A model generated the notes under the pieces. That model saw nothing but the letters and a program-made list of their open reading frames with translations. It was not told the origin of the DNA and did no database searches. From Candidatus Wolfebacteria bacterium (GTDB taxonomy: Bacteria > Patescibacteriota > Minisyncoccia > Phycocordibacterales > EsbW-18), in the NCBI GenBank assembly GCA_022616195.1, contig JAKEFG010000014.1:1-61204 (forward strand): a stretch of 61,204 bases of DNA, given 5' to 3'. Each line of letters begins with the position of its first letter. Position 1 is the stretch's first letter. Shown piece after piece: positions 17,056 through 59,594 of this stretch. The translations under genes and the position numbers were made by a program.

Positions 17056-17063
17056 AATTCAAG

Positions 17064-36994: not shown

Positions 36995-38140
36995 CTAGTG
37001 ATGATATAAAGCCGCTGTTCTCTCAAGCATACGTTCCAGAGAAAACCTCTCAGTAACAGCCTTTTTAAGAGCCTTCCCATACTTCTTTCGTTTATCCTGA
37101 TTCCTGAAAAGTAACTCAAGTGCCCGGGCGACCTCGTCCGCATCCCCGGGACGGACAAGGATGCCTGAAGCCTCGTCAGTAATAACCTCAGGAATGCCGC
37201 CGGTCGTTGAGGCAATAACCGGCAGCCCTGCCTGCCCCGCCTCAAGCACCGTATACGGCAATCCTTCTTTAAGAGACGGGAGGACAAACACATCCAGTGC
37301 CGGCAGCACACGTGCAGTGTCCACATACCCCACCAAAAACACCTGTTGACTGAGCCCGAGGTGGCCAATAAGTCGTTCAAGTGTGTTATACTCCTCCCCC
37401 TCACCAGCAATCACACATCGTGCCTTCGGAAACATATCAACAACCGAGCGCATCGCCCATACAAGCGCGTCAAATGCTTTGTTTCTGGTAAGTTCTCCCA
37501 CTGTTCCCACCCACACACCGCGTGGAGAATCGTTACGAAGCGAGGGCACAAGAACCTTGAGATATTCTTGCGCGGCCGCCCGGCTTGCAAATGAGAGCGG
37601 TGCACGGCCGTTGTGAATGAGGACACATTTCCCCCGCAGAAACGGCATCCGCTCAGCCGCTCTCATGTCAACATCGGCAATCAGTATCACTCGGTGCGCA
37701 AAAAATGCCGTAAGCCATGAGAAGAACACAATGAGCATCCGTGCGGTACGCCCACGTTGTTCACGAAACGGCCAGCCGTGAACAGTGAAGATAACTCTAT
37801 GCACGCCAAGGAGTCGTGCAGCAACCGCGCCAAGTCCGCCGGCTTTTGAGCTATTGACATGCACCACATCTGGACGCTCACGCCAGATAATACGGAACAA
37901 CTCCGCGAATGCACGGGCTTCTTTTATAAAGTGTATGTCACGCTGGAACGTACGCACCTGAACCGTCCGTATGCCCGCCGCCTCAAGCCGCGTCTTGAGC
38001 TCGCCGCTACCACCGAGTGCAACAACAACATCGTAGACACCTTGGAGTTCTGTTGCGAGATCGTAGACATACCGCTGTGCCCCAAACCATACAGATTTCG
38101 TAATGATGTAGAGTACCTTTGGTGTATGTGTTGTTTTCAT
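36995..38140 (-). CDS. Glycosyltransferase family 4 (GT-B fold)
   Basis: 381 aa. The C-terminal PSLKEGLPYTVLEAGQAGLPVIAST.GGIPEV resembles the E(x7)E region of GT4 enzymes. Confidence 0.85.
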   Translation of the reverse strand: MKTTHTPKVLYIITKSVWFGAQRYVYDLATELQGVYDVVVALGGSGELKTRLEAAGIRTVQVRTFQRDIHFIKEARAFAELFRIIWRERPDVVHVNSSKAGGLGAVAARLLGVHRVIFTVHGWPFREQRGRTARMLIVFFSWLTAFFAHRVILIADVDMRAAERMPFLRGKCVLIHNGRAPLSFASRAAAQEYLKVLVPSLRNDSPRGVWVGTVGELTRNKAFDALVWAMRSVVDMFPKARCVIAGEGEEYNTLERLIGHLGLSQQVFLVGYVDTARVLPALDVFVLPSLKEGLPYTVLEAGQAGLPVIASTTGGIPEVITDEASGILVRPGDADEVARALELLFRNQDKRKKYGKALKKAVTERFSLERMLERTAALYHH

Positions 38141-38150
38141 ACTCTTTCAG

Positions 38151-38192
38151 TATACCCAGCACCACTTTTATATAAAAGTGGTGCTGGGTGTA
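38151..38192. repeat. GTATACCC-type hairpin (36-nt perfect palindrome ACCCAGCACCACTTTTATATAAAAGTGGTGCTGGGT)
   Basis: It lies in the 87-nt divergent spacer between the GT4 start and the gdh start. Confidence 0.85.
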
Positions 38193-40133: not shown

Positions 40134-40152
40134 ATCTAGTGCCTAGAGCCTG
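40134..40152. repeat. Short CTAG heptad array (2 units)
   Basis: TAG starts at 40137 and 40144. It shares a 16-mer with 26188-26203. Confidence 0.6.
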
Positions 40153-40237
40153 TTTTACACGCGGGACTTAATATCTCCTCATCTCCTCCGCAACCCCGTT
40201 AGAAAGCTCCGCTTCTAACGGGGCAGGCGTTCCCGGC

Positions 40238-43382: not shown

Positions 43383-43418
43383 ACTAGTTATTAGGCGCTA
43401 GGCACTAGGCCTAACGCC
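43383..43418. repeat. Heptanucleotide stop array upstream of rpsL
   Basis: TAG starts at 43385, 43392, 43399 and 43406. TAA starts at 43412. Confidence 0.85.
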
Positions 43419-43486: not shown

Positions 43487-43903
43487 TTACTCAAGTGTCC
43501 GGTAGTACTCTTGAATAACCCGTACCACCTCGGAATCACCACGCAAATCCTCAACAATGACGACATGGTCGCGGTTGATGCGCATTTCGTCAACAGGCCC
43601 ATGGAGCTCGCCGCCAAATTTGACCAGATTAACATCCGGTTGCGGAGGCAGGGCGCCATTCTCCGACTGGACCGGCTGTATCGGCTGGCTCACCTGGAGA
43701 TAAAAGATGTCGCGCAGAACAATGAATTGTCTGTCACGCCCGGATAGTGTACCGAAATACACCTGATTATTATCAAGAAACACGGCTTGATACGTCCCCG
43801 CATCGGCGTCCGACGAAAAGGGAAGGACACCGGCGTCGTACAACAGGAACCCGCCGGCGGCAACTATCACGAGAATGAGCAAAACAAGTAATCCTTTAAA
43901 CAT
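43487..43903 (-). CDS. Hypothetical membrane-anchored protein
   Basis: 138 aa with an N-terminal TM segment (LLVLLILVIVAAGGFLL). I recognise no family. Confidence 0.5.
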   Translation of the reverse strand: MFKGLLVLLILVIVAAGGFLLYDAGVLPFSSDADAGTYQAVFLDNNQVYFGTLSGRDRQFIVLRDIFYLQVSQPIQPVQSENGALPPQPDVNLVKFGGELHGPVDEMRINRDHVVIVEDLRGDSEVVRVIQEYYRTLE

Positions 43904-43970
43904 AGTGCGGTTTCAGCATGAATTTTGTAATGGGGCTCATATATACCATGTCACATCACTTTCCAAAATG

Positions 43971-46900
43971 CTACGGAGTATCTGTGGACTCCGTGTCGGG
44001 TTCCGTGTCCGCCTCACTGTCCTCCTGCTGTGGTGCAGGTGCCGACTCGTCAGAATGGGGCAACGCCTCTTCAGATGTTTCCGGCTCCGACGTACCGATT
44101 GGCTCGGGTTCACTCGCCTCCGGTTCCCCCGCCGGCTCCTCTGACTCTTCCACGGCGCCGTCGGTGCCCCCAATTGATTTACCTATCTCTCCGCCGTCTT
44201 CACCGCCGTCCCCATCTTCAATTTCCGGAGTGGTCGTTCCCTTCCCGCCCTGCGGCTCTTCTGCTTCACCACCTCCGCCCGATGGCGTATCTTGACTCTC
44301 GCTCGCAGATGTTTCCCCCGCACTTGCCTCGCTGTCAGATACTTTCCCGCACTCGCCCGAGCGGGTGATCGTTGTACCCCCGCGTACCGAGAGACAGTAT
44401 GGCTCGCCGGTCCGCTCGTCGTAGAGCGTGATGCCGGAGGGCTTTTCGGAAGACCCGACCGTAAGCCGCTCCACAACAAGATTCACTGTGTTGGTAATGC
44501 CCGACCCGATTGCCGCGGCAAGTTGGTCAACCCGCTCCACAAGTTCCTGAATCGCCTGAATCAGGAGCGGTACGATGCTGATGTAGCGGACGCTGTTCGG
44601 CCGTCCCTCTCCGTCATAGCCGACAAGCTGCTCGTCAACCGAGTCAACTTCCTCCGCGATGAGTCCGTAGCGTGTGCCGGGAACCGCGTTGTACTCAAAC
44701 GACACCGGACGCAATTGCACCACCCGCGACAGCGCAAAATTCTCCGGAAGCGTTTCAATGTCATGCTTATACCGTTCGGAAGAGGCGAGGCATGTCTCGG
44801 CATCGGTATTCCGTGTAACTTCGCCCGCGCTCGAGAGACACAGCGACGCCGCGGCGGCTCCGGTATTGAGCGTCAGCCCCGAGAATGCAACCGTACCGCT
44901 CGCCGAGAGCGTGCGCCATGGCGAGCTGGTGCCGACGCCGACGTTCCCCGACGCATCAACAACTGAGAGTACCGTCCCAGAGTTATTCTGCCACTCCTGG
45001 AGATTGACGCTTTGCCCCGACTTGCCACGTACTCCCAACACCACGTCACTTGAAAGCCGTGGTTCTACCAAGAGACCCGGGGAATTTCCTGTTGCAGTCA
45101 GTAGTGTCACCCCCGCCGCCTGTACTGTTAGACCTTCGGAGAGAATCGCGGCACCGAAGCGGTCAATGGTTAATCCCTTGCCGCCACTCGAAAGAAGGGT
45201 GGCGACCGCTTCAGTACTATTGCTTTGAGTCACCTTAAGTGCTGTCTGTGACTCGCTCGACGGAATCACCACGTGAAGTTTCGCGGTCGGACTCGCGATG
45301 CCAATACCGACATTCCCACTAGCGTCAATGATAAATGGCGTGGAGTCGGAACTCGTGGCATCCTCTACCACAAACGAGGGTGCTGTTCCTGTATTGGTGA
45401 CGGAAAGTCTTGCCCAAGGTGAGGTCGTGCCGATGCCAAAGGTGCTATCTGTGAAACGTGCAACTTCAGCATTTGTTGACGAAAATACGGGAATACTTCC
45501 GTTATTTACTTCAAACCGATTACCTCCAAGCACTCCGATATAATTTCCAAATGCCGTCATTCGATAGTCACCAGCGTTACTAATGTCGGATGAGTCAATG
45601 GTGAGAACCGAGTTCCCACCAATTGCTACCGCAAGATGGTTATCTAAAATTTCAAAAAATCCCGTATCCCCATCGCCGAACGCAAGTGTGGGAGTAGTTG
45701 CATCATTTGATAACGGTAGAAGGAGTTGCGCTGTGGAGGACGCCGAAAGATTTAACGTCGCGTTGTTGTCATTCCACACAAAGTTGGCATCTCCACCGAA
45801 TGACCCACCATTGTTGTATTGTACATAGGTGTCGGCACCGCCCGGAGATGTTGTGAGTCCCAACGTTGACGTCGCCACCCACTGGATACCAGAACCCGTT
45901 GTTTGCAGAACTGAACCATTTGTTCCTAAACTCGCGCTGTTGTCGTACACCCCTCCCGTGAGCGCGAGATTTCCGCTTACTGAAAGCCTCGCAAACGGAG
46001 ACGTGGTGCCGATACCTACATTGACCGCATCAGCGCCCGTGCCCCCAAGCACCAATGAATTGGACGCGCCCACTTTCGCATTTTTTCCGATAGCGGTGGC
46101 ATTCGTGAAACCTGTGTTCAGAACGTCCGCATTATAGCCAACAAGCGTATTGTATGTACCGTCTACATTAGTGTTCCCTGCAAGAAACCCTACTCCTGTG
46201 TTGAACGAGCCCGAGTTGGTGCCAGTGAGCGCCTGCGCGCCGACGGCCGTGTTTTCATCACCCGTTGAAACATTAAACAACGAGGTATCACCCAGTGCGG
46301 TGTTATCAATTCCCGTTGTTAAAAACTTGCCCGCTGTCACGCCAAGTGCTACGTTGCTCTGACCGCTCGTGAGGCTTTGGAGCGTCTGATAGCCAATACC
46401 AATGTTGCCGAGCGTCCCGCTCATGGTGAAATTACCCGCATCTCTCCCCAGAAAGAGATTGGTGATATTGCCAAATGAATGAAGATACCTATTCAGCCCC
46501 ATGTACACGATGCCTTCGGTCGCGGTGGTCTGCGGCAACCCGAAGTTGCCCGAGATCGAGAGCTGCTGTGTCGGGTTCTCGATACCGATTCCCACACGCC
46601 CCGTCGATACATCTGCAAAAAGAAGTGGTGTTGAGGATGTACCAACGCGGACGTCGCCCCAGACGTCCAGAGGGGACGCAGGAGATGTGGTTCCAATACC
46701 GAGATTGCCCGAAAAGTAGCCTCCCCCAATCACCTCAAGTTTTTGATTGGTGGTTGTCGCCGAAGCGCCAATCAAAACTTGATTGGTCGTCGTCGCAAGG
46801 CGGACGCCGCTCTCGTTGAAAAACTCCCAACTCTCATCACCGCTCACAGCCGCCCACGAAAGCCCTCCAACACCATTCGTGGTGAGCGCCTGCCCGCTCG

Positions 46901-48014
46901 TCCCGTCGCTTCCCGGGAAGAGATACTCCACGCCGTTCAACGTCGTGGATGCAGAAACGGTGAGCGTGTCGGAAGAAAGCTCTCCGGAAAATGTTCCGTC
47001 AGTGCCTGATAGTGCACCAGTGAGTGTGCCTCCAGAAGTCGGAAGAAAATCGCCGGCGCCGGAACGATTTGAGGGTGAGCGAGCCGCACGGTCAATTCGT
47101 GGCGTGAGTTCATCCCTCAGAGCGTTCACCGCAGTCTCGACATCTAGAAGAGAAAGGCTGTCCGACACATTTGATACCACAACCGGAATCCGTTCAATAA
47201 TACGTTCAACAACCCATGGGGACATCCCTTGCGACTGGGGCGATGGAATAAATTCTTCTTGTTGTGCCATCCGCTCCTTCGCTTCTTCAACCACGTCCTC
47301 GTCTATGACAAGCGCCGTGTTCTCGTCTCTGCAGCCCGCGCCTCTCGGTACAATTGGACAGAGTGTATAGTACAAAGACCGTGCGAATACACGCACTGGG
47401 TCAAAAATGCTCCACACATTTGCAACACCTACGTTGGGCAACCTTTCACCAAGTCGACGGATTGTCCTTTCCGAACCGTTGAGCCCGTCATCAACGAACG
47501 TACTCAACCCGCTCCACGCAGAACCAATCATATTACGAACATCATATGTTGCCACCGATACATCAAGAGTATGACGGAACATGTACCCTGATATTACAAG
47601 TCCGGCAATTAAGAGTGACACGGCAACACGAAGTGCACCTCGCGTTACTCTTTTGTTTCGCGACGACTGAGACGAAAGAATCCTCACCCGCCGAAGGTAA
47701 GGAAAGTCTTCGTTGCTTCCGGTGCCGCGCGGTTCTATTGTTGACTCACTTCTTGAGAAAGGCTTGCGCGGTGGTGGCGAGAAGTCCTCGCGGGTGGTGA
47801 GTGGCTGTGTCTCGGTCTCTCTGTTAGATGCATGCTCTGCAACATATGCCCTGGTACTTTCTTCATCAACAAAACGCAGTTTCCCGATGAGCTTAGAGCG
47901 AATCTTGCCCGCCCGGGCGAGCTGCCCGATATAATCGCTTGTATAGCCGCTTATCTCGGCTGCTCGCCGAGACGAGATATACGTCTTCCCGTTAAATTCA
48001 ATACCGTCTGTCAT
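43971..48014 (-). CDS. Giant surface protein: N-terminal HTH, one TM segment, tail-fibre-like repeat region, S74 intramolecular-chaperone domain, acidic tail
   Basis: 1347 aa. The excisionase/MerR-like HTH is TYISSRRAAEISGYTSDYIGQLARAGKIRSKLIGKLRFVDE. The TM segment is ALRVAVSLLIAGLVISGYMF. The motif (N/F)(V/L/G)GIGT(T/S)SP recurs 5 times. The S74-like segment is SSERYKHDIE...YGLIAEEV...ISIVPLLIQAIQEL, at about nt 44500-44790. The tail is rich in Asp, Glu, Ser and Thr. Confidence 0.8.
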   Translation of the reverse strand: MTDGIEFNGKTYISSRRAAEISGYTSDYIGQLARAGKIRSKLIGKLRFVDEESTRAYVAEHASNRETETQPLTTREDFSPPPRKPFSRSESTIEPRGTGSNEDFPYLRRVRILSSQSSRNKRVTRGALRVAVSLLIAGLVISGYMFRHTLDVSVATYDVRNMIGSAWSGLSTFVDDGLNGSERTIRRLGERLPNVGVANVWSIFDPVRVFARSLYYTLCPIVPRGAGCRDENTALVIDEDVVEEAKERMAQQEEFIPSPQSQGMSPWVVERIIERIPVVVSNVSDSLSLLDVETAVNALRDELTPRIDRAARSPSNRSGAGDFLPTSGGTLTGALSGTDGTFSGELSSDTLTVSASTTLNGVEYLFPGSDGTSGQALTTNGVGGLSWAAVSGDESWEFFNESGVRLATTTNQVLIGASATTTNQKLEVIGGGYFSGNLGIGTTSPASPLDVWGDVRVGTSSTPLLFADVSTGRVGIGIENPTQQLSISGNFGLPQTTATEGIVYMGLNRYLHSFGNITNLFLGRDAGNFTMSGTLGNIGIGYQTLQSLTSGQSNVALGVTAGKFLTTGIDNTALGDTSLFNVSTGDENTAVGAQALTGTNSGSFNTGVGFLAGNTNVDGTYNTLVGYNADVLNTGFTNATAIGKNAKVGASNSLVLGGTGADAVNVGIGTTSPFARLSVSGNLALTGGVYDNSASLGTNGSVLQTTGSGIQWVATSTLGLTTSPGGADTYVQYNNGGSFGGDANFVWNDNNATLNLSASSTAQLLLPLSNDATTPTLAFGDGDTGFFEILDNHLAVAIGGNSVLTIDSSDISNAGDYRMTAFGNYIGVLGGNRFEVNNGSIPVFSSTNAEVARFTDSTFGIGTTSPWARLSVTNTGTAPSFVVEDATSSDSTPFIIDASGNVGIGIASPTAKLHVVIPSSESQTALKVTQSNSTEAVATLLSSGGKGLTIDRFGAAILSEGLTVQAAGVTLLTATGNSPGLLVEPRLSSDVVLGVRGKSGQSVNLQEWQNNSGTVLSVVDASGNVGVGTSSPWRTLSASGTVAFSGLTLNTGAAAASLCLSSAGEVTRNTDAETCLASSERYKHDIETLPENFALSRVVQLRPVSFEYNAVPGTRYGLIAEEVDSVDEQLVGYDGEGRPNSVRYISIVPLLIQAIQELVERVDQLAAAIGSGITNTVNLVVERLTVGSSEKPSGITLYDERTGEPYCLSVRGGTTITRSGECGKVSDSEASAGETSASESQDTPSGGGGEAEEPQGGKGTTTPEIEDGDGGEDGGEIGKSIGGTDGAVEESEEPAGEPEASEPEPIGTSEPETSEEALPHSDESAPAPQQEDSEADTEPDTESTDTP

Positions 48015-48720: not shown

Positions 48721-48730
48721 GTGTGTAAAT

Positions 48731-48757
48731 CCGAAATTCGAATATCGAAATTCGAAA
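48731..48757. repeat. TTCG/CGAA heptad array downstream of the four-helix-bundle gene
   Basis: The sequence is CGAAATT CGAATAT CGAAATT CGAAACA. CG starts at 48732, 48739, 48746 and 48753. Confidence 0.75.
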
Positions 48758-49146: not shown

Positions 49147-49178
49147 TTGTTTCGTGCTTCGGATTTCGTGCTTCGTGC
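49147..49178. repeat. TTCG heptad array upstream of the four-helix-bundle gene, inverted relative to 48731-48757
   Basis: The sequence is TTTGTTTCG TGCTTCG GATTTCG TGCTTCG TGCTT. CG starts at 49153, 49160, 49167 and 49174. Confidence 0.75.
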
Positions 49179-49226
49179 TTAGGGCACTTGCCGGCAGTGT
49201 CTTTGTATGCTAGCATAGTGGGCACT

Positions 49227-49469
49227 ATGGCAAAAGAATGTGCAGTAACCGGCAAATCATCACAAGTGGCGGGCGGGTACAGCAATCGCACGCGCGCAAC
49301 GCAGTTCAACCCGACTGGCAAGCGCCGTCAGCGTTCAAACATCCAAAGACGAAGAATCTATATCCCCGAGCTCGGTAAAAATGTTTCCGTCAACCTCTCG
49401 GCAAAGGGACTCAAAATCATACAAAAGAAAGGTCCATACAAAGCGCTCAAGGACGCAGGAGTTATTTAG
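49227..49469 (+). CDS. rpmB: 50S ribosomal protein L28
   Basis: MAKECAVTGKSSQVAGGYSNRTRATQFNPTGKRRQRSNIQ is a typical L28 N-terminus. I chose the ATG at 49227 as the start. Confidence 0.9.
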   Translation: MAKECAVTGKSSQVAGGYSNRTRATQFNPTGKRRQRSNIQRRRIYIPELGKNVSVNLSAKGLKIIQKKGPYKALKDAGVI

Positions 49470-49500
49470 CATCTAGCTCCTAGCGACTAGGCGCTAGCCG
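49466..49500. repeat. Heptanucleotide stop array beginning with the rpmB stop codon
   Basis: TAG starts at 49467 (the rpmB stop), 49474, 49481, 49488 and 49495. Confidence 0.9.
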
Positions 49501-49510
49501 ACCATATACC

Positions 49511-49539
49511 AAACTCTAGCGATTAATCGCTAGAGTTTT
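49511..49539. terminator. Bidirectional rho-independent terminator between convergent genes
   Basis: AAACTCTAGCG-ATTAAT-CGCTAGAGTTTT. It has an A-run on one side and a T-run on the other. Confidence 0.6.
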
Positions 49540-49553
49540 GTAAAGGGTGTCGC

Positions 49554-50432
49554 TCACCGAGCTCTGACTGTGTTGCCGTCAGATTCAAAGACAACTGTCC
49601 CCTCGTCGCAGGTGGAGAGTATTTTTGTATTGAGCTTCGTGAATATATCAATCACCTCCTGATGCGGATGTCCGTAGGAATTGTCACACCCAGCAGAAAT
49701 CACAACATAGTCGGGATCAACGACACCCACAAAGTGCTCCGAGTTTGATGTCCGCGAACCGTGGTGACCTGCTTTGAGCACATCACTCTCAAGCGACGGC
49801 CCGTCGCGAAGTATTAAATATTCTTCAATTGCCTGCGGCGCGTCCCCGGTGAGCATGAATTCCGTGTCACCGTAGACGAGTTGTGCGATAACCGAACCGG
49901 TGTTCGTTTCAACACCCGACACGTCGCGGTCGGGAAAGAGTATCCGCAGATACGCGCCGCCTCCTACATCAACTACCTGTCTGCGGCGCGCAAGAACGCG
50001 CTTTCCCTCCGGTTCTTCATCGGCAAGCCGCTCAAATTCTTCATACACTCCCGTGTCGTTCAGTACGCCCGGGTCAAGAATATGCGAGACGTTGTAGTCC
50101 TCCAGTACGTCTGCAAGTCCCCCGATGTGGTCCCGGTCGGGGTGCGTCGCAATCACAACATCAATAGAGCGGTCAAAGAACGGCATCACCCCACCGAGCT
50201 GGCGGAGCACCACATTTCCCGCTCCGCCGTCGATGAGCACTTGCCGACCCGAGGGGCTTTCTATAAAAATACTGTCGCCCTGCCCCACATCCAAAAACGC
50301 AACGGTGAGCGTATCGCGTGCCGTCTCCGCCGCAACCGCGTACCACACAACCACGTTCACCAACACGAGCACCAAGAGCACTAGCCATCTTATGTTGTTC
50401 CTCAATCCGTTCACACCAACAGTATAGCCCAC
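49554..50432 (-). CDS. ComEC/Rec2-related metallo-beta-lactamase-domain protein (stand-alone)
   Basis: 292 aa with an N-terminal TM segment, then VAFLDVGQGDSIFIE, HPDRDHIGG and GHHGS motifs. Confidence 0.8.
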   Translation of the reverse strand: MGYTVGVNGLRNNIRWLVLLVLVLVNVVVWYAVAAETARDTLTVAFLDVGQGDSIFIESPSGRQVLIDGGAGNVVLRQLGGVMPFFDRSIDVVIATHPDRDHIGGLADVLEDYNVSHILDPGVLNDTGVYEEFERLADEEPEGKRVLARRRQVVDVGGGAYLRILFPDRDVSGVETNTGSVIAQLVYGDTEFMLTGDAPQAIEEYLILRDGPSLESDVLKAGHHGSRTSNSEHFVGVVDPDYVVISAGCDNSYGHPHQEVIDIFTKLNTKILSTCDEGTVVFESDGNTVRAR

Positions 50433-50605: not shown

Positions 50606-52309
50606 TTATCCCGTGTGCATCTTACGCCAGAGTTCGTAGATACGAATGAGGCGAAGCGTGTCGTAGGATACCGTTTTACCTTCCATCTTTTCTATATACT
50701 CCCGTAACGGCACAAGGCGCTCCCAGCCGTGTTTGTCGGCCGCGCAGCGCGCGGCGGCCAGCGCGCGGTCATCGGGAGCAAGTTTCAAATGCGAAAGGTT
50801 GAGCGGTACGCCTTCTTCAAGCAGTTTCTCAATATGAGAGAATATCGTTCCCGCCGACACACCGCGCTCTTGAGCGATAGCGTTGACGCTCTTTCGCTCC
50901 ATAAGCAATTCGTGCGTTCGGTGGTGCGTCGGCGCGCGTCGAGCGGCGTTTGCCAGTGCCGGGTGCCGCGGCAGAGCGTCTTTGATGTATGTTCCCTTGT
51001 GACGCCTGACAAACTCCTTGTGGCGTTTCTCGCGCTCCTCGTTCGACACCAGAGCAAGGCGGGCTCGCGCATGCGACGAACGCGTCTGGAACTCCGCATC
51101 CGCCCGCCGCACCGCGTCGTCAACGGCAAGCGCCGTGTCATTCAGCGAACCGAGATAGAGTCCTTGCAAACTCCGCACCCGCGAGAGCGCCACGTACCCC
51201 TGCCCGGGCACGAATGCGCCGGAGAGCTCCACATACGCCTCGTCGAGTGTGAGTCCCTGGCTCTTATGCACGGTGAGCGCCCACGCGAGCCGAAGCGGCA
51301 CCTGCGTAATCCGCGCCCGAACGGCTCCGTGCTCCTCAATGCGCCATTCAACCGGCTCGGCGACAACCTTTCTCCCGCTTCGCGTTCTCACCAGCGGATA
51401 CGCGCCGTCAAGACTTTCAACGACGCCGCGTGTGCCGTTGACATACGTGCGCATGGAATCGTTTTTGACAAAGAGCACCTCCGCGCCAACTTTGAGGCGA
51501 AGATTTTCGGGAGCGAGACAGCCGCGCTTGAGCGCTTCCACCAATTTGCTCCCGCCTTTTGTCCGCATCTCGTATATCTTTTCACTGCCGGAAAGCGTAG
51601 CAAGTTTCTCTTCGTTTTCCGCGTCTACATCCTTGTTGTGCGCGTAGAGCCGCGTCACGCCCTCACCAACCGCAGAACGCGCCGTGTGCCGTTCTTCAAG
51701 AACCGCCCGCACCCGTTCCAGCGCGCTCCCGGCTCGAATGTCGTTCAGCATCTCGGCAAAGCGTTCGTCTTCTTTATGTCGCTCGCGGGTTTCCAGATAA
51801 CACACAACAGGCTTCGCTTCGTGCCACGCCTCCGCTTCGTACGCAAAGCGCGCGGGCTCCTCATCCTCGCGGGTGACCGGCGGGAGTTGAAAGAAATCAC
51901 CCGCGAACACCACCGTCATGTCGCCGAACGGTTTATCGCTCATGCGCAATACTTTTCCGATGGCGGAAAGCGCGTCAAGTTGTTCCGCCGAGAGCATGGA
52001 CACCTCGTCTATAATCAGCACTGCCGTGTCTCTCCAGCGCTTGGCGAGCCGCTTGTTCCGTTCAAGCGCGGGAATGTCTTCGTCGGCAAGCCGCTTTCTG
52101 ACACCCAAGCCGGACCACGAGTGCACCGTCTGCCCGCCCAAGTGCGTCGCGGCAATACCGGTTGAGGCAGTGACCGCGTACGGAACGTTCACCGCGGCGA
52201 GCCAGTCGATAAAGCGGTTCACAAGAAAGGTCTTGCCGCTTCCGGCACTTCCGGTGATAAACGCCGTGTGCCCCATTTTCAAAATATCAAGCGCTTCCTC
52301 CTGCCGCAT
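50606..52309 (-). CDS. PIF1/RecD-like ATP-dependent DNA helicase with a C-terminal HTH
   Basis: 567 aa with Walker A GSAGSGKTF, the DEVSM motif, the VHKSQGLTLD motif and a C-terminal IAQERGVSAGTIFSHIEKL. Confidence 0.85.
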   Translation of the reverse strand: MRQEEALDILKMGHTAFITGSAGSGKTFLVNRFIDWLAAVNVPYAVTASTGIAATHLGGQTVHSWSGLGVRKRLADEDIPALERNKRLAKRWRDTAVLIIDEVSMLSAEQLDALSAIGKVLRMSDKPFGDMTVVFAGDFFQLPPVTREDEEPARFAYEAEAWHEAKPVVCYLETRERHKEDERFAEMLNDIRAGSALERVRAVLEERHTARSAVGEGVTRLYAHNKDVDAENEEKLATLSGSEKIYEMRTKGGSKLVEALKRGCLAPENLRLKVGAEVLFVKNDSMRTYVNGTRGVVESLDGAYPLVRTRSGRKVVAEPVEWRIEEHGAVRARITQVPLRLAWALTVHKSQGLTLDEAYVELSGAFVPGQGYVALSRVRSLQGLYLGSLNDTALAVDDAVRRADAEFQTRSSHARARLALVSNEEREKRHKEFVRRHKGTYIKDALPRHPALANAARRAPTHHRTHELLMERKSVNAIAQERGVSAGTIFSHIEKLLEEGVPLNLSHLKLAPDDRALAAARCAADKHGWERLVPLREYIEKMEGKTVSYDTLRLIRIYELWRKMHTG

Positions 52310-52401
52310 AGATCAAGTTCATTAGTTACTTAGTCAGTTAGTTTGTTGGTGCATTCCCCTCCTCCGCGCGATATACCAACATTCTCAAGTTTATTGGTAT
52401 G

Positions 52402-53127
52402 TCAATCAATAAGTTTGAGCAATGGTTCCTCCCAATCAAACATGGTTGACCGACCCTCAAGTATACGGAACGCTTCCGCGCATTTCGGCTCAATCTTTGC
52501 ATACTCCTTGAGCATGTCCACCGACGCGACAATGAGATTGCCGACCGTTCCGTCGGAATCGTCCACCCCTCCCCGCGAGAGCTTCTCGTCAATACGCACA
52601 AGTGTGTCTACGACGAACTTTGCCGTCTGCCGACTCACCGGTAAATCTGAAAAGACAGCCGACAGACGCCTACGCCCTTCCAAGAGCGAGTCCTGGTACG
52701 CAAACCATGTCCGCGACGGACCGTCGTATGACTTGATATATCGCAGAGCCGCGGTGATTTTCTTTTTGGCGGCTGAAAGCTCTGTTTTATTCAACTCCCC
52801 TTTTCTGCCGCTCGATACCACCTCATCAGCGCGTTTTTTGTCTTTTGCCGAGAGCGGTTTGCCGCCGACCGCCGCGCGCATCGCGACCGCCACCATGTGC
52901 TTGCAGAGCGTGTCTTGCTCGCCGAGGTAACAGGTGCAATAGCCGCGGTCAAACCCGCGCGCCGACACAAACACTTCGTAGGAACTCGTACCGAGTACGA
53001 CTGCCGAGTGCCCATCAACCAGCTCGCAAAATCGCGTTACCTTGCCACCCTCATACAAACGAACCGCGCGGTCAAAAATTCCTTTGTCGGTCCCGAACTT
53101 TATGTCCTCAATCGTATACTTTGGCAT
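52402..53127 (-). CDS. SWIM zinc-finger protein
   Basis: 241 aa. CTCYLGEQDTLCKHMVAV fits the CxCx(n)CxH SWIM pattern. Confidence 0.75.
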   Translation of the reverse strand: MPKYTIEDIKFGTDKGIFDRAVRLYEGGKVTRFCELVDGHSAVVLGTSSYEVFVSARGFDRGYCTCYLGEQDTLCKHMVAVAMRAAVGGKPLSAKDKKRADEVVSSGRKGELNKTELSAAKKKITAALRYIKSYDGPSRTWFAYQDSLLEGRRRLSAVFSDLPVSRQTAKFVVDTLVRIDEKLSRGGVDDSDGTVGNLIVASVDMLKEYAKIEPKCAEAFRILEGRSTMFDWEEPLLKLID

Positions 53128-53260
53128 TTGGCGTGTTATTTCTCCAAATAAACCCTGTTACCCCGCAGCAAGCTGACGGGGCAATCTCTTCGAGTATACC
53201 AAAGAAAATTCCCCGCCTCGTTTCGGAGACGGGCGGGGCACGGAACACACGCGGGGATTC

Positions 53261-54386
53261 TCACGGCGGGTTGTTCTCACCCTGCCTGATGATAAACGCA
53301 TCCAGCAAGTCCACCAGGTTGTCACCATCGTAGATTCGGACCTTCCACACGAACAGGTCTGCGGCAGTAAACCCGCACTGCGGCAGGTGGAAATCGGCAA
53401 AGGTCACCATGTGCTGGATGAACAATGGGGTGTACGCCGAAGACAGACCTTCAACCCCATTGAAGAACGTGCTCCCAAGAGATGTGCCCGACGCCGAGAA
53501 GTTAATAGAGCACGACGGCTCGTTCTCCCTCACCGTCAGGATTCGTAGAGAAAGCGAGGGGTGAGGACCAGCGCCGACCGACGGGAAGAACGCCGCAACG
53601 GTAAAGCCACTTTCCTTGAACGGTCCCATGCTCTGCAGGTCCATCAACTCAAAGAACGGTTGGTTTGCGTGATTGGGGTCAGGGGTAGCGTTGATAAAGA
53701 CGCCGTCCCCTGGTTCACACGGGTTTCCTTCAACGAAGTTGAGGAATCCGCTGCAGGGCAGAGGGACACGGTTGAGATTGATGAAGTCGGTGGGGTTGGT
53801 GTAGTCAGCTGCTACCTCTATCTCGCTTTTCTTGCAGGGAAAAACCGATGCGAGGTCGTCAAACTTCCTCACTTCAAAGTGCAGATGATACGGCAGACAG
53901 CCGTTGCTGTTTCCTACCGTGCCCACCTGCTCGCCGCGATGCACCTCGTCTCCTATCTGCCACGGCAGTCCGGTGTGCGGGTTATTGCTTACTTCCCCGA
54001 GGTGCCCGTATTGGGTATCGGGGTTCGTCACCGTGCCGCGCTTCGGGAAGCGCGAACGTGCCTGTGTGCCCGATGAGGACGATGTTGCCCCAGCAGGAGC
54101 CGGCTTGTCCGGCAAATTTGATGGTGCCGTCTCCCGCAGCGTACACGGAATCGCCCGCGTCGTCGCCGTCAAGGGCGTTGAGGTCTTGGCCGGGATGGTA
54201 CACCGCCCCACACGAGTACGACGTGGTGTCGAGCGTGAGAAAGTCGTTCGCCCCGATGGTGATGCCGTATCCCTCACCGTCGGGCGGGTTGAGCGGGAAG
54301 TTAAAGCCATCGGTGGTCAGCGTCTGTGCACCGGCCGAGAGAGCCGCGAGGAGCAGAGCGCTCCCGAGAACTGTTGCTTGCTTCAC
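53261..54386 (-). CDS. Secreted M23 (LytM-type) peptidase with an unknown C-terminal domain; apparent +1 frameshift at 54045-54047
   Basis: ORF 53982..54386 carries the signal peptide and HPGQDLN. ORF 53261..54310 carries YGHL...GDEVHRGEQVGTVGNSNGCLPYHLHFEV. Removing one G from the GGG at 54045-54047 joins them as ...GTFALPKRGTVTNPDTQYGHL... Confidence 0.75.
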
Positions 54387-54399
54387 CTATATGCTCCTT

Positions 54400-55215
54400 T
54401 CAGTTGAACTCAAGCGAGTTGAGTATCTGGGTGAAGGTGTCAAGAGAGACGTACACCGGGTCGATGCCGATGCCGTTGGTAACTCGGTAAATGCGAGTAT
54501 CTACAGCGAGAACGACCGAACCAGTATCGAGACTTTGAAGTACCTCGCGACCAGCGATGGTTGTGAGCATGTAGATCGAGCTCCAGTCTCCGTCAGGAGT
54601 GGGCCAGTTTTGCTGATCTGCCCACTCACTTATACTCAGACTTTCAGGATTCAACTCCCTCCATGAGACAGAGACACCCTGAGAAGGATTAGATGAGTTG
54701 AGCAGTCCGAAGTTCTGCCCTTGTGGCTGGGCTTCGAATTCCTGCAGCTGAAACTCCCCTGGGTAGCTGATGGTGAAGCCGCCTGCCTCACTTGCCACAC
54801 TCGGCCACACGATGGTAACCGTAGCCGGGAGCGGCTTTGCGAGGGTCTGGCTGCCGTCCGCTGGGCGGACGTGGAGCGTCCCTTCTAGAGTTTCGGGGTC
54901 GGCATCGACCGACGCGGTGAAAGCGAGCGTCACGGTGTTGACGCTTCCATCGGTGACACCAAGGAACGAGTTGGGTGAGACCGTGAGAACGTCCGCGAGT
55001 TCGGGTACCGGCTCGATGACGACATCGCCGATGTCCTCGTTCGCGGTGAACGAGACGTTCACTTCGGTCGGTTCGGCACCGACAGTTGCCGTCGCCGAGA
55101 CCGTTCGAGGCGACCAGATGACGGGATAATTCCCCTGCGAGGCGGCGTACGCTGCGCCGAGGGCAGCAACGACAAACACCACGACTGCGATTGCGATGAT
55201 GTGTATTTTGCTCAT
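54400..55215 (-). CDS. Hypothetical secreted or membrane-anchored protein
   Basis: 271 aa with an N-terminal TM/signal segment (IIAIAVVVFVVAALGAAYA). I recognise no family. Confidence 0.5.
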   Translation of the reverse strand: MSKIHIIAIAVVVFVVAALGAAYAASQGNYPVIWSPRTVSATATVGAEPTEVNVSFTANEDIGDVVIEPVPELADVLTVSPNSFLGVTDGSVNTVTLAFTASVDADPETLEGTLHVRPADGSQTLAKPLPATVTIVWPSVASEAGGFTISYPGEFQLQEFEAQPQGQNFGLLNSSNPSQGVSVSWRELNPESLSISEWADQQNWPTPDGDWSSIYMLTTIAGREVLQSLDTGSVVLAVDTRIYRVTNGIGIDPVYVSLDTFTQILNSLEFN

Positions 55216-55527
55216 GACCCTAGTTTACTCCTCCCTATGTGTGTTGTGAAGAACTTATGTGCACAAGCCGCCGCGTGGCGGCTTGGTATTTCCGAGAAGA
55301 GTATAACAGGTTACAACACTACCACCAACACCCCACTGCAACGACACCCATTCGGGAGTCTAACTCCCCACAGAGCCCCGATCGTCTCCACAAACGATTT
55401 CAATGCGGGATAGAAACTTTCTTCCCGCGCATCGCCGCGCTTGCCGGCATCAAAAACCTCTTTGAGATAGCCGGCAATAATGCTTTTGCCCTGTTGTGCC
55501 TCTTGTTTTGAAGCCACTGCAGGTTCA

Positions 55528-55571
55528 GTATACCCCGCACCATTTTTAAATAAAAATGGTGCGGGGTATAC
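55528..55571. repeat. GTATACCC-type hairpin (GTATACCCCGCACCATTTTTA-AA-TAAAAATGGTGCGGGGTATAC)
   Basis: 21-bp perfect arms. Overlapping ORFs on both strands read the same KNGAGYT peptide here, as expected for a palindrome. Confidence 0.85.
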
Positions 55572-55626
55572 CCGCTCACTAGTGCTAATGCGAACGGAGC
55601 CGTCGGAGAGTGTTTCTCCAACGGCT

Positions 55627-55947
55627 CTAGCCAAAACAAATCTTGATGGAGAGATTGCGCACAGCGCGCGCAACCGCAAGCTTGGTACGCTGAACGTCTC
55701 CAGAAAACACACGGATTTCCTGTGCTCCGCCGTTACCAATCACGGCGAGGCGTATCCCACCGCTCATGTCGGAAATCTTCACACGGGGCTGTGAGCTTCC
55801 TGACACCCGCGCATTGATGCCCCCGATAGTGACGTTTGTCACTTCGGGTCTTGTGACGACAAGGTCTGCGACCTTTGCCGCCGCATCCGTCAGCGTACTG
55901 TGTCTGCCCCCGAACTTTCCGCCTTTTCGGTGTGGCTGTCCTCCCAT
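55627..55947 (-). CDS. Small hypothetical protein, possibly DUF2103-like
   Basis: 106 aa. The pattern GRHSTLTD...VTNVTIGGI...GGIRLAV..NGGAQEIRVF resembles, from memory, DUF2103-type small proteins. This identification is not verified. Confidence 0.4.
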   Translation of the reverse strand: MGGQPHRKGGKFGGRHSTLTDAAAKVADLVVTRPEVTNVTIGGINARVSGSSQPRVKISDMSGGIRLAVIGNGGAQEIRVFSGDVQRTKLAVARAVRNLSIKICFG

Positions 55948-56040
55948 TAAGAATCTCCTTTCCGAGGGAATTATACACCTCTTTACTAATTACATCAATT
56001 TAAACCACCCGCCCCTGCGAGTTGTAGGGGCGGGTGGTTT

Positions 56041-56068
56041 GCTAAGCGCTAGGTGCTAGCGGCTAGGT
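56041..56068. repeat. Heptanucleotide stop array downstream of the SleB-like gene
   Basis: TAA starts at 56043. TAG starts at 56050, 56057 and 56064. Confidence 0.8.
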
Positions 56069-56070
56069 GT

Positions 56071-56661
56071 TTATTTAATGTTGGAGTAGAAGGCGAAGCG
56101 GAGCGAGCCGGATATGGGATCGGGTACGGTATGCGACGGCGTTTCTCCCTGTGCCCAGAGCGGCGTTCGGCGAACAGCAATCGGTGAGTAGAAGTGCGTG
56201 ACACCAGAGGCAATCGGGCGCACGGAATCATCGGCAAAGTACACGTCGTTTGCTACCGCAATAGCGCTTTCCCACCCGACCGCCGCGTCATCAAAATCAA
56301 GCGTGGTATTGAGTGAGTAGTGACGGTCCGAGGAGTTGAGTCCCGAGAACTGTTTGGGCTGGAGTACGACTTCCTGATACGTATTCGGATACTTGCTTGA
56401 GGCAACACGGTTCCGGATGACCCACGCGACGAGCTCCTGCTCCTTGCGCACCTTGGTCTCCGAATAGACCGCGCGGGCAAGCCAGAGGATTTCCTCAAGT
56501 TCCCCGGTATCTGCCTCCGGGGCATATGCGCGGGCGATCAAAGGCACGCCCCAGAAGGTATGGGCAGAGAACATGAGTCCGAGAACACCCAAAAGTCCGA
56601 AAACGGCGGCAACCGCCTTGGATATGGGAACATCATCGGACTGACGGGTAACAGATTTCAT
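56071..56661 (-). CDS. Cell-wall hydrolase, SleB domain (Hydrolase_2)
   Basis: 196 aa with an N-terminal TM segment, then LARAVYSETKVRKEQELVAWVIRNRV and QPKQFS. Confidence 0.8.
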   Translation of the reverse strand: MKSVTRQSDDVPISKAVAAVFGLLGVLGLMFSAHTFWGVPLIARAYAPEADTGELEEILWLARAVYSETKVRKEQELVAWVIRNRVASSKYPNTYQEVVLQPKQFSGLNSSDRHYSLNTTLDFDDAAVGWESAIAVANDVYFADDSVRPIASGVTHFYSPIAVRRTPLWAQGETPSHTVPDPISGSLRFAFYSNIK

Positions 56662-56946
56662 AGAGTTTATGTATGATACTTAGTGTTAGAAACGAAAATT
56701 CCCGCTGACGCGGGATTCGCTGCCTCTTACGAGGACAGCTCTATCCTAGCATGGCCTCATAAAAAAGTCAATACTTGGCAATCTTCCCTTGTGTCTGTCA
56801 ACCAATGGCTCTGTTGAGCCGCCCGGGAGTAAATTCTCTTTTAGGGACGCGGAGGAAATCCCCGGGCGATTGTGCCCGATGTTGCACCAAAACCCTGCTT
56901 AGACACCCGCATCTGCTATACCCCCTCACCTTTTTGAACATGCGGG

Positions 56947-56992
56947 GTATACCCAGCACCGCTTTTGCGAACAAAAGCGGTGCTGGGTATAC
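56947..56992. repeat. GTATACCC-type hairpin (GTATACCCAGCACCGCTTTTG-CGAA-CAAAAGCGGTGCTGGGTATAC)
   Basis: 21-bp perfect arms, in the divergent spacer between the sleB-like and sod genes. A partial extra arm, TATACCCC, lies at 56917-56924. Confidence 0.85.
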
Positions 56993-57030
56993 TTGAGAGC
57001 ACTCCCCGCATTAACCACAGCAAACCACCT

Positions 57031-57786: not shown

Positions 57787-58029
57787 ATGACGACATTGAT
57801 GCTTGCCGCGCTCGCCATTATCGGTCTCGCGTGGCTCATGCAGCTTCTCAATGCCTGGAAGCATGGAAGGAGTTTGTCAGATACCTTCCTCCTCACCTAT
57901 GGCATTGGTACAGCGCTTCTCCTTGTTGACGGAGCACAAACTGGGTTCTCAGCGATCACGTGGATTTACCTGATTACGCTCCTTATCGTTGCGCTGGTCT
58001 ACATCCGCATACACCGAACTCAAGGGTAG
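57787..58029 (+). CDS. Small hypothetical membrane protein (3 TM helices)
   Basis: 80-aa hydrophobic ORF. Its TAG stop is the first unit of a heptad array. Confidence 0.45.
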   Translation: MTTLMLAALAIIGLAWLMQLLNAWKHGRSLSDTFLLTYGIGTALLLVDGAQTGFSAITWIYLITLLIVALVYIRIHRTQG

Positions 58030-58059
58030 CGACTAGCCGCTAGCATCTAGCGCCTAGCC
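58027..58059. repeat. Heptanucleotide stop array beginning with the stop codon of the 57787..58029 ORF
   Basis: TAG starts at 58027, 58034, 58041, 58048 and 58055. Confidence 0.9.
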
Positions 58060-59594
58060 AGATTGGAACCAGAGTCAGCCACCACCCCCGCGGCTGCGGG
58101 GGTGGTGGTTTTCTTCTTATGAAAATACACGAGAAGCGCCACATACGCGCCGTAGAGGAGAAACATTCCCCACGCGGGGAATACCGGAAGCGCGACTGAC
58201 ACAAACGGAATATCGGCAAACAAGGACACCACGCCAAGAATGTACGACAGGAGTCCGTAGCTCGCATAGGCAAACGGAAGCGAGAGAACGGTACTCACCA
58301 GCCCGACCATGCCGGCGAAAAATCCAACGAACATCGTCACAGGCACCGCCGCAAGTACGAGAATGTTTACGGGAAGCGCCGCGAGCGAGAGCTGTCCCAC
58401 TTGAAACAAGAGAAGTGGGAGGACAAAAATCTGCGTTGCGAGCGTCGCCACGATTACCTCCCGCAACTGCCACTTGGTTGACACGAAATGGAGACGCGTT
58501 TCAATGATCGGCGCGACGTAGATGAGCCCAAGCGTCGCCAGAAATGAGAGCTGAAACGACGGGTCAAAGGCGAGAATCTTCGGACTCACCAGGACCATCA
58601 GAAACCCGGCGACAAAGAGGGCGCGGGTGATGTCATAGGTTCTCCCCGTCGCCCGCGCCAATACCACGAGGAGTGCCATGATAGACGCGCGGACAATCGT
58701 CGCCGAGCCGCCCGTCATCACCGCAAAGAGCACGATGCCGAGCGCACCAAAGCCGATGGCGGCAAGGTGCGGCAGGAACATTCCCGCAAACCGCATGATT
58801 GCTTCAGCAATGATGGTCACGTTGTAACCGGAGAGCACAACGATGTGAATAATGCCCGTCGCGCGAAAGTCATCAAGAAGCTCGTCGCCGAGCGATTCTT
58901 GCGCGCCCACGACCAAGCCGCCGAGGAGCGCCGCGTGGGGCTCCGGCACCACCCGCTCCACACGCGAGAGAAACGCATTCTTAAACCCGAAGAGAAGGCG
59001 CTTTACGGGATTGCCGTACCCACTCTCCAGAAACTCAACCTCGGGATAGAGCATTTGGTAGAAAATATTATCCTTGGCAAGATACGCGGGGTAATCAAAG
59101 AGGCGTCCGTTGTCCGTCTCAAACGCTTCCGGCTCTTTGAGCGTTCCGGTGACGCGTACCTTGTCGCCGTAGTTGTACTTCGGGCGCGTCGCGGCAAGAA
59201 CAAGTATCTTTGCGTCCTCTTCCCCTACTATACTATTTTCTACATTCTCTATTCTGATGCGAAGTTGTTGGGTTCTCTCCTTGTGTATTGGCTCGTCAAT
59301 CACCACCCCTTCAAGCGTTACTTTCGCATCAAGAAACTCGTCAAGCGCGTGGCGCGGTGCAAACGCGTCGGCAAGGTCAAAGCGAAGCATGCCGAGTGCC
59401 GCCGCAATACAGACAAGCGGAACAAAGAGGAGCACCGTGTTGTGCTGTGCGAGAAGTACGTAAGCGCCGAGCACAACGCCGAGAAAGAGTACAAAAAGCG
59501 AGAACGAGAGTCCGAAATCAACAAACGAGCGGAGAAACACCCCTGCCACAAAGCTCCCTATGCCCACATAAAACCACCGCGCCGCACTATCCAT
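58047..59594 (-). CDS. comEC: DNA internalisation competence protein ComEC/Rec2 (DUF4131 plus competence domain; no MBL domain)
   Basis: 515 aa, polytopic. It contains FRATGIIHIVVLSGYNV and SFLATLGLI motifs typical of the ComEC channel domain. Confidence 0.85.
   Translation of the reverse strand: MDSAARWFYVGIGSFVAGVFLRSFVDFGLSFSLFVLFLGVVLGAYVLLAQHNTVLLFVPLVCIAAALGMLRFDLADAFAPRHALDEFLDAKVTLEGVVIDEPIHKERTQQLRIRIENVENSIVGEEDAKILVLAATRPKYNYGDKVRVTGTLKEPEAFETDNGRLFDYPAYLAKDNIFYQMLYPEVEFLESGYGNPVKRLLFGFKNAFLSRVERVVPEPHAALLGGLVVGAQESLGDELLDDFRATGIIHIVVLSGYNVTIIAEAIMRFAGMFLPHLAAIGFGALGIVLFAVMTGGSATIVRASIMALLVVLARATGRTYDITRALFVAGFLMVLVSPKILAFDPSFQLSFLATLGLIYVAPIIETRLHFVSTKWQLREVIVATLATQIFVLPLLLFQVGQLSLAALPVNILVLAAVPVTMFVGFFAGMVGLVSTVLSLPFAYASYGLLSYILGVVSLFADIPFVSVALPVFPAWGMFLLYGAYVALLVYFHKKKTTTPAAAGVVADSGSNLARR

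Follow-up and report, generated by a model that had tools for sequence, protein, structure and literature searches.

Heptanucleotide repeats are the most abundant long simple-sequence repeats in many prokaryotes, according to a survey (Mrazek 2007) as cited in two later papers (PMC4679880, PMC4692102). Among them, the intergenic direct repeat TAACTGA of marine Beggiatoaceae, cyanobacteria and Bacteroidetes has an unexplained function (MacGregor 2015, PMC4679880). The GGGAATC and GGGGA(C/T)T heptamers of Xanthomonas and Nostoc, with which the cyanobacterial short tandemly repeated repetitive (STRR) heptamers are grouped here, prefer about four units (Rehm 2015, PMC4692102). For cyanobacteria, Xanthomonas and Beggiatoaceae, intergenic heptamers have been on record for decades, with no mechanism to account for them. 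The present work deals with arrays of TAG or CTAG words repeated every 7 nt in a DNA stretch of 61,204 nt from Candidatus Wolfebacteria bacterium (GCA_022616195.1, contig JAKEFG010000014.1, positions 1-61,204, forward strand; hereafter the window), and mainly with the array that follows rpmB, the gene of ribosomal protein L28.

Tandem units of about this size can also be protein sites. The ribbon-helix-helix proteins omega repressor (inc18 plasmids, heptads WATCACW) and MetJ (8-bp met boxes, AGACGTCT) recognize contiguous 7-8-bp repeats, one dimer each, and bind cooperatively to at least two units; in tandem met boxes, CTAG arises at the box junction. TRAP sites consist of repeated (G/U)AG triplets with free spacers, which are read by a ring-shaped oligomer that controls a terminator. 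The HutP site in the hut mRNA of Bacillus subtilis, which has been compared with the TRAP site, contains three U/XAG triplets with free 4-nt spacers by or within an intrinsic terminator, and its occupation alters termination (PMC2425495). Regarding stop codons placed after the real one, a systematic study reported that bacteria show no selection for additional stops of this fail-safe kind (PMC6764699). No paper mentioning CTAG together with Patescibacteria or related names was found in the literature searched.

The rpmB array and its conservation

An array was defined as a series of (C/T)TA(G/A) units, abbreviated YTAR, at strict 7-nt spacing. The sequence at 49466-49500 (+) reads TTAGCA TCTAGCT CCTAGCG ACTAGGC GCTAGCC, with TAG starting at 49467, 49474, 49481, 49488 and 49495 and CTAG at 49473, 49480, 49487 and 49494, exactly as described in an earlier note made from the letters alone. 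The first TAG (49467-49469) is the stop codon of the L28 gene, identified by its Pfam Ribosomal_L28 match, with ATG 49227 as true start and a product of 80 aa; the four units that follow share the consensus CTAGCNN. The array lies in the 3' untranslated region (UTR), between the stop codon and a terminator hairpin (49507-49542, 15-bp stem, z=-5.5) common to rpmB and the convergent MBL-fold gene. The stem of this hairpin itself reads CTAGcga-TTAAtcg-CTAG, which represents three YTAR units at period 7.

At the other end of the gene, a likely -10 element of rpmB, TAGCAT, was observed at 49207-49212 and is kept in L125, the closest relative found (about 1861-1866). Its distance from the ATG is only 15 nt, so the leader would be very short. 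This hexamer reappears as unit 1 of the rpmB array. A promoter reading of the arrays, with TAGNNT as -10 element, was rejected as a general explanation since most units lack the final T.

Exact look-up of the window L28 protein gave no record, and relatives were reached through its homologues instead (more than 2,700), the closest named ones being Candidatus Paceibacterota and Campbellbacteria (Patescibacteria/Candidate Phyla Radiation). The contigs or loci of relatives used in the comparisons are labelled L125 (L28 84% identical to that of the window), L210 (79%, GC content 46%), L211/L212 (78%, GC 48%) and L173, an AT-rich Paceibacterota contig (GC 35%). The gene order EF-G, S7, S12, M50 peptidase, L28, MBL-fold, Hydrolase_2, SOD, ComEC is kept in relatives. 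Two blocks of the window are absent from their syntenic regions, namely 43487-48014 (rpsL to M50), with a 138-aa open reading frame (ORF) and a 1347-aa Peptidase_S74 (tail-fibre chaperone) protein, and 50606-55739 (MBL-fold gene to Hydrolase_2), with a PIF1 helicase; both may be phage-derived or mobile insertions.

The array after rpmB was present in the same place in L210 and in L211/L212. In the window, L210 and L211, an in-register TAG at the end of rpmB is followed by four further units and then by a terminator hairpin, giving five units (stop TAG plus four) in all three lineages. In L211 a TAA directly precedes the in-register TAG; the hairpin core TAGCGATTAATCGCTA is common to this locus and the window. 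When the three arrays were compared, 18 of 19 core columns were invariant versus 4 of 15 spacer columns (Fisher p=4.8e-5). The sole core change was CTAG to CTAA, and the invariant spacer columns corresponded mainly to the C right after TAG. All 12 of 12 units retained the C before TAG, including those of L210, whose array has no convergent gene, and 13 of 15 retained the C after it. A second case is the array after the cell-wall hydrolase (Hydrolase_2) gene, which is identical in the window and L125 (3090-3107), with three CTAG units in both; the hairpin beside it has diverged in sequence in L125, with its pairing retained.

Since the core columns have remained intact while the spacers differ across three lineages, this comparison shows purifying selection on the CTAG core. 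The presence of arrays in independent assemblies of different origin indicates that they are no assembly artefact.

Alternatively, the arrays could be functionless heptanucleotide simple-sequence repeats in decay, expanded by polymerase slippage near hairpins and gene ends, of which tolerated versions persist; the conservation would then reflect shared ancestry combined with a low mutation rate, or gene conversion. The abundance of heptanucleotides in many prokaryotes, as cited above, speaks for this, and so does the patchy presence of the arrays among relatives. Neutral decay, however, would strike core and spacers alike, whereas the spacers are near-random and the core is intact. A constant number of five units in three lineages is also unlike a length-variable simple-sequence repeat, and Tandem Repeats Finder misses or barely scores most arrays. 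Perfect and stop-free heptamers, described below, also speak for an origin by slippage and decay, which on balance is unlikely.

The possibility that structure is what is conserved was also considered. CUAG/CTAG is self-complementary, which makes a four-unit array near-palindromic, and it could form a hairpin or cruciform; this might assist termination, provide stability or amount to a slipped-DNA structure. Imperfect 10-bp hairpins were scored for the arrays at 49473-49497 and 58033-58057, with units 1 and 4 and units 2 and 3 paired in the minimum-free-energy folds, and the array at 56036-56075 reached z=-3.3. Nevertheless, two of these three arrays alone folded no better than shuffles (z=-1.4 and -0.5), and spacer complementarity was not retained in L210 or L211, with no spacer covariation between species. 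These two results show that no conserved RNA fold is present and that sequence, not structure, has been kept. Moreover, the stabler palindromic tetramers GGCC, CCGG, GCGC and GATC never form such arrays, and relatives carry non-palindromic arrays of TAG only, so a structural element is very unlikely. In Rfam searches only three tRNAs reached the gathering score in the whole window, and nothing meaningful was found at 49380-49620 with E values up to 1.

Period, position and stop codons

Three CTAGs at period 7 occurred five times in the window and not once in 100 dinucleotide-preserving shuffles, which were used as the chance model; the frequency of the arrays is thus far beyond chance. The word itself is depleted, with 67 copies versus 116 +/- 9 expected, and 24 of the 67 fall within 254 nt of arrays. 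The earlier note had called CTAG a normally avoided tetranucleotide and five copies in such a short space striking. Chains of at least three TAG, CTAG or YTAR words were absent from the window at periods 4-6 and 9-12, and one was found at period 8; TAG chains of this length at period 7 numbered seven. To compare periods more widely, a set of non-redundant Paceibacterota loci totalling 724 kb was taken, including loci from a metagenome scan with L28, whose 80 retained rpmB loci are useful solely as background of this kind. In this set, 16 TAG chains of at least three units were counted at period 7 versus 0-4 at each other period from 4 to 12, and 15 YTAR chains versus 0-5 at the other periods. 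TAA, TGA, TTAA and control words gave no period-7 peak there, and in the window TAA, TGA and fifteen other palindromic tetramers formed no such chains, isolated single ones apart. With at least seven arrays in 61 kb, the window is unusually rich.

The seven YTAR arrays of the window begin at 17020, 26184, 40136, 43384, 49466, 56042 and 58026. The recurrence of the rpmB design noted before at 58027, 17020, 26182, 43383 and 56041 was real at every site, and the two-unit site at 40136 is an addition. The neighbour genes of every array were assigned by Pfam scans of the window ORFs. When the 22 strongest hairpins of the window were considered, six of the seven arrays had one at a distance of 1-43 nt and abutted a gene end; the seventh is near a weaker terminator-like hairpin. 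Two arrangements were distinguished. In class I (rpmB, an 80-aa gene, Hydrolase_2) the order is stop codon, array, 1-20 nt, terminator hairpin, and the base after TAG is nearly always C. In class II (rpsL, LemA) the upstream terminator is followed by the array and then by the start codon, the sense strand reading CTAA/CTAG-NGC; these arrays could overlap promoters.

The class I array at 58026-58060 (+) consists of GTAG and four CTAG (five TAG units), with C after each unit. Unit 1 serves as stop codon to a conserved gene (57787-58029) for an 80-aa membrane protein, and an intrinsic terminator with a 15-bp stem and a T-run (58077-58110, +) comes 17 nt after the array. The convergent ComEC ORF on the minus strand terminates in the unit at 58047. 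This ORF passes through the terminator hairpin of the convergent gene (58077-58110) and stops only in the CTAG array (58047-58112, minus); it has 515 aa versus 474-501 aa in homologues, that is, about 20 extra C-terminal residues. The class I array at 56042-56069 (-) reads CTAGccg CTAGcac CTAGcgc TTAGc on the minus strand (CTAA and three CTAG on plus). It begins 4 nt past the TAA with which the Hydrolase_2 gene (56071-56661) ends; a 16-bp hairpin (56002-56040, -) follows directly and abuts it.

The class II array at 43384-43415 (-) has the sense sequence CCTAGtgc CTAGcgc CTAAtaa CTAGtgt (three CTAG and TTAG), ends 10 nt upstream of the rpsL ATG (43373) and lies downstream of a weaker terminator-like hairpin (43466-43446). 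That at 17020-17052 (-) shows four TTAG and one CTAG on the plus strand and five CTAA/CTAG on the sense (minus) one. Only 5 nt separate its end from the downstream LemA ATG (17015), and the groEL terminator hairpin (17063-17104) is 11 nt away. The same sequence family includes the array at 26184-26222, with five CTAG and one in-register CTAA, and the short two-unit copy at 40136-40150. The former sits between the convergent genes of an MFS transporter (stop 26154) and transketolase (stop 26316), 39 nt from the hairpin at 26261-26290; the latter is 43 nt from the hairpin at 40193-40224, which comes after fusA. By family, the arrays of the window share the longer motifs CTAGCNN and GCCTARN. A run of three TAGtatg at 4786-4806 (+), between the divergent serS and dprA, has TAG on one strand only and is a possible relative of uncertain membership.

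Other repeats were also observed in the window. A family of long terminator-like hairpins with ends GTATACCC...GGGTATAC and 18-21-bp stems occurs at 38146-38192, 55524-55570 and 56946-56993, and also at 17063-17104; it resembles repetitive extragenic palindromic (REP) elements in being repeated at several gene ends. A TAG chain at 13209 was discarded as an array, as it is the arm of an unrelated palindromic repeat of 32 nt. This perfect-palindrome family, CTATTCTC[T/A]AATTC..GAATT[A/T]GAGAATAG, has 5-6 copies (1868-1899, 2809-2840, 12630-12661, 12837-12863, 13187-13218 and 28174-28205), three of them inside called coding regions (Dus, FtsQ-like, ribulose-phosphate epimerase). Since an ArsR-type helix-turn-helix gene (12858-13169) has a copy on either side, the repeat may represent an operator or a small mobile palindrome.

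Some arrays resemble each other closely, which raises the question of whether array and hairpin form a small mobile or duplicative cassette, like a miniature inverted-repeat transposable element (MITE) or a REP element; clustered sites for a CTAG methyltransferase or restriction enzyme are a related idea, which fits the depletion of CTAG elsewhere in the window. The arrays at 56041 and 58033 are 92% complementary, that is, near-identical inverted copies, an identity of 82% over 39 nt links 17008-17046 to the copy at 43372, and one 16-mer (CTAGTGCCTAGAGCCT) is common to 26188 and 40136. In addition, the rpmB array with its hairpin resembles a 66-nt indel relative to L125. On the other hand, no terminal inverted repeats, target-site duplications or transposase were seen at the arrays, nor the many near-identical copies that mark MITE/REP-like elements: the likeness among arrays is only pairwise, and the hairpins of one array and the next show no sequence relationship. 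The rpmB array is old, with its position fixed in three lineages, and no methyltransferase or restriction gene was present among the scanned window ORFs. Mobility or methylation is accordingly a most improbable cause.

A simple rule describes the position of the arrays. Read along the TAG strand, the array abuts its 5' neighbour gene in either orientation, which was observed for about 15 of 19 TAG arrays (binomial p=0.02). Two period-7 repeats without stops obey the same rule: AAATTCG (x4.4, 48727-48757) and TTCGTGC (x4.3, 49151-49180) lie a few nt from the starts of the minus-strand genes of the M50 peptidase and of a 23S-IVS protein, respectively. The existence of these stop-free repeats in the window, and the fact that the rule is common to the GGGAATC repeats, count for the view of the arrays as decaying slippage products.

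Taken together, the arrays are a real feature under selection at gene boundaries. The earlier note had suggested a selected translational stop block with stops in all six frames. Stops in three frames were found as claimed, and on both strands in most arrays but not always; the in-register variants are TTAG or CTAA, by which both-strand stops are retained. The idea can be worded as an all-frame, often six-frame, stop cap at the end of highly expressed genes, by which read-through or frameshifted ribosomes would be released before melting the terminator hairpin or entering the next initiation region. The palindromic CTAG would serve the other strand, and period 7 would merely come from the heptamer slippage bias of bacteria.

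Several observations are in line with such a cap. The conserved word is a stop codon, and the commonest one here: the 53 window ORFs of at least 100 aa use TAG 24 times, TGA 16 and TAA 13, a TAG dominance that is unusual for bacteria. Unit 1 coincides with the real stop at rpmB, in three lineages, and at the conserved 80-aa gene, ComEC too stops within an array, and sense-strand TAA/TAG runs directly precede the LemA and rpsL starts. When any stop codon was admitted, 13 period-7 chains were counted in the window versus 0-3 at other periods. The neighbours are of highly expressed types (rpmB, rpsL, groEL, fusA), and the TAACTGA repeats likewise give three-frame stops and overlap upstream stop codons (PMC4679880). 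Two mixed-stop chains lie antisense within genes, TGA, TAA, TAG, TAG, TGA at 27824-27854 (+) in rpe and TGA, TGA, TAA at 37098-37114 (+) in a glycosyltransferase gene; these may be due to chance or may be antisense versions of arrays.

A generic stop block, however, should take TAA and TGA as well as any period not divisible by 3. The data do not follow this, since only TAG/YTAR at period 7 is enriched and non-stop flanking bases are conserved. Non-random placement at boundaries, selection on the core and the rpmB stop as unit 1 are upheld; the stop block as a sufficient explanation is not supported. Periods 4, 5, 8 and 10 would serve equally well and yet are unpopulated, the single period-8 chain of the window apart. 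TAA, TGA and TTAA are unused even in the 35% GC relatives, whose genes mostly end in TAA. The conserved C before and after TAG has no role in termination, and 4-5 units are present where three are enough. The use of TAG as stop varied from 6% to 58% among related loci and did not correlate with array density (rho=0.18, p=0.30), and in some relatives the arrays have TAG solely antisense to both neighbour genes. Among the genome-collection matches listed (see below), long ORFs ended at units 1, 2 and 3 in a ratio of 39:25:28, so that the phase relative to stop codons, proposed earlier as a check, was weakly non-random without being significant. Finally, general selection for additional stop codons is not seen in bacteria (PMC6764699). 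A stop cap is the main rival reading, though on the doubtful side; if it held, bacteria would have their first clear case of selected fail-safe stops, against the prevailing view.

A putative binding array for an oligomeric protein

The reading that we tentatively prefer, with less than even confidence, is that the arrays are cooperative binding arrays for an oligomeric protein with a 7-nt register. They would be cis-elements of 3-5 contiguous heptads, each with a fixed TAG or usually CTAG core plus one conserved neighbouring base, the rest of the spacer being free, and an oligomeric nucleic-acid-binding protein would contact one core per 7 nt. Once bound, it would modulate the efficiency of the terminator and its read-through, or the translation or stability of the flanking mRNA. 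These effects are proposed because the arrays sit between stop and terminator (class I) or between terminator and start (class II). The stops in all frames would be a built-in side property of the TAG core, which may bring some benefit; the two readings, recognition array and stop cap, are not mutually exclusive.

Several features point in this direction. A fixed word in strict register with free spacers, 3-5 units and consensus families is the classical signature of a site for an oligomeric protein. The lack of a peak for TAA, TGA and TTAA, together with the conserved C before TAG, suggests a specificity beyond stop codons, and the longer motifs shared within array families are as expected for the sites of one regulon. 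The exclusive period 7 and the strong hairpins beside six of the seven arrays point the same way. Precedents for such a register are HutP, on RNA beside a terminator, and the omega/MetJ class of proteins, which polymerises on DNA repeats of 7-8 bp. A recognition array had been offered earlier as the second possibility, and this putative array fits the pattern better than the stop block. Its geometric detail, a CTAG core on every second helical face, does not hold: 7 bp turn the helix by about 240 degrees, and every third core, not every second, would lie on one face.

A protein as the reader, the type of target (RNA, single-stranded DNA or duplex DNA) and the effect of binding are what we infer from these features. 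The location of class I in the transcribed 3' UTR ahead of the terminator argues for RNA as target, whereas class II, with TAG only on the antisense strand, argues for DNA. In L173 (1155-8840, 15986), six TAG-N4 arrays were found in 20 kb, each 2-27 nt upstream of a start codon, with TAGTTTT on one strand and CTAAAAA on the other and TAG on the strand antisense to the genes. One of them comes directly before a gene whose product starts with MTRVKRG and is L20-like by eye.

Conservation in related genomes, which had been named as a check, was confirmed at the rpmB site in L210 and L211/L212 and at the Hydrolase_2 site in L125; it is also patchy, with the rpmB array missing from most relatives. 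This patchiness is the first of a number of points that weigh against a protein reader. The rpmB array is absent from L125, where the spacer between rpmB and the MBL-fold gene is merely 18 nt, as well as from several other relatives and from 80 of 80 metagenome rpmB loci. The class II arrays of AT-rich relatives, with TAG antisense to genes, are awkward for a reader at the mRNA level. The position rule is also true of the GGGAATC repeats and may partly reflect the way heptamers originate, not a reader of TAG. In viral contigs four CTAGs were found at period 7 in at least 120 loci, and in 113 at period 8 and 53 at period 5, with no clean contrast between periods. Pfam scans of about 50 window ORFs gave no HutP, TRAP, Csp or obvious ribbon-helix-helix candidate, and HutP is, to our knowledge, essentially a Firmicutes protein.

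The occurrence of the arrays beyond these relatives was evaluated by scanning one genome per species for four CTAGs at period 7. At least 120 loci from many phyla were listed. Among these matches there were many perfect (CTAGNNN)n tandem repeats, which count for the slippage reading, and many variable-spacer arrays in the same contexts as those of the window. In listed matches of this second kind, the array either followed a T-run terminator or preceded a ribosome-binding site and ATG by 10-20 nt.

In its broadest form, the proposal would be that the arrays are cis-sites of a gene-boundary system widespread in Patescibacteria and perhaps other phyla, in which an oligomeric protein reads one TAG per 7 nt in nascent RNA or single-stranded DNA and thereby determines, for many highly expressed genes, how far terminators are read through or translation is coupled. 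As it stands, this extension is unlikely. If true, the system would do across the genome what HutP and TRAP do for single operons, and it could explain the dominance of heptamers among bacterial intergenic repeats. If a protein reader as such exists, Patescibacteria would have a new global regulator acting on termination or translation, and the arrays offer a ready bait for finding it.

Comparison with described repeats and protein sites

Among protein sites, the HutP site shares with the arrays the UAG-N4-UAG geometry, the period of 7 and the place beside a terminator, and its number of at least three triplets is reached. It differs in being bipartite, with two XAG-rich sites joined by a 12-17-nt linker, and in lying upstream of the regulated genes in one Firmicutes operon, whereas the window arrays occur at many gene ends, each as one run of 4-5 units in which TAG has a conserved C on either side. 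A two-site arrangement of the HutP type was not found; at rpmB, a second set, TAG-TAA-TAG, lies 22 nt away inside the hairpin stem. No HutP domain occurred among the scanned ORFs of the 61-kb window. TRAP sites are less similar, with 9-11 triplets and 2-3-nt spacers (period 5-6) against 3-5 units at period 7, and TAG chains at period 5 or 6 were absent from the window. With the operators of omega and MetJ the arrays have in common at least two contiguous units of 7-8 bp. Their core is CTAG, not WATCACW or AGACGTCT, and those operators are placed at promoters or centromere-like sites; the arrays are found at gene 3' ends as well as upstream of starts, and those of class I between convergent gene ends.

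Fail-safe stops and engineered three-frame cassettes are alike in providing stops in every frame downstream of a gene. A natural fail-safe stop needs no single codon, single period or conserved flanks, and in the arrays only TAG/YTAR at period 7 is enriched.

Considered as intergenic heptanucleotide repeats, the arrays do consist of at least three head-to-tail 7-nt units in non-coding DNA. Their units are not near-identical over the seven positions: CTAG and one flanking base are shared and the spacers differ. The position rule of Rehm (2015) holds for them, in the proportion and with the p value given above. Copy-number variation was not seen at rpmB (five units in three lineages) or Hydrolase_2 (three CTAG in two loci), a small sample. 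The GGGAATC repeats are likewise intergenic heptamers that abut the 5' neighbour ORF in either orientation (PMC4692102), a rule that places the repeat on the sense strand after a stop or antisense just upstream of a start, as is the case for the TAG arrays. In contrast to the arrays, they contain quadruplex-forming G-tracts and no stop codon, and close relatives differ in their copy number, as against the constant five units at rpmB.

The closest parallel is provided by the TAACTGA repeats. These have a 7-nt period, 2-6 units, an intergenic location, three-frame stops and a patchy phylogeny, and they are found directly upstream of start codons, including those of ribosomal protein genes, and sometimes overlap the upstream stop (PMC4679880). 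They are made of exact units with two stops on one strand only, whereas the window arrays fix 4-5 of 7 positions around a palindromic CTAG or a TAG/YTAR core, and many of the latter come after stop codons and before terminators, not before start codons. To this group of repeats the present case adds clear evidence that a core of 4-5 nt between free spacers has been under purifying selection, in diverged species and at one and the same gene end, and it shows the pattern in a streamlined candidate-phylum genome in which non-coding DNA is scarce. On the sequence evidence, the arrays are best filed as a degenerate-spacer variant, with a CTAG/TAG core and HutP-like geometry, of the known and unexplained intergenic heptamer repeats of bacteria.

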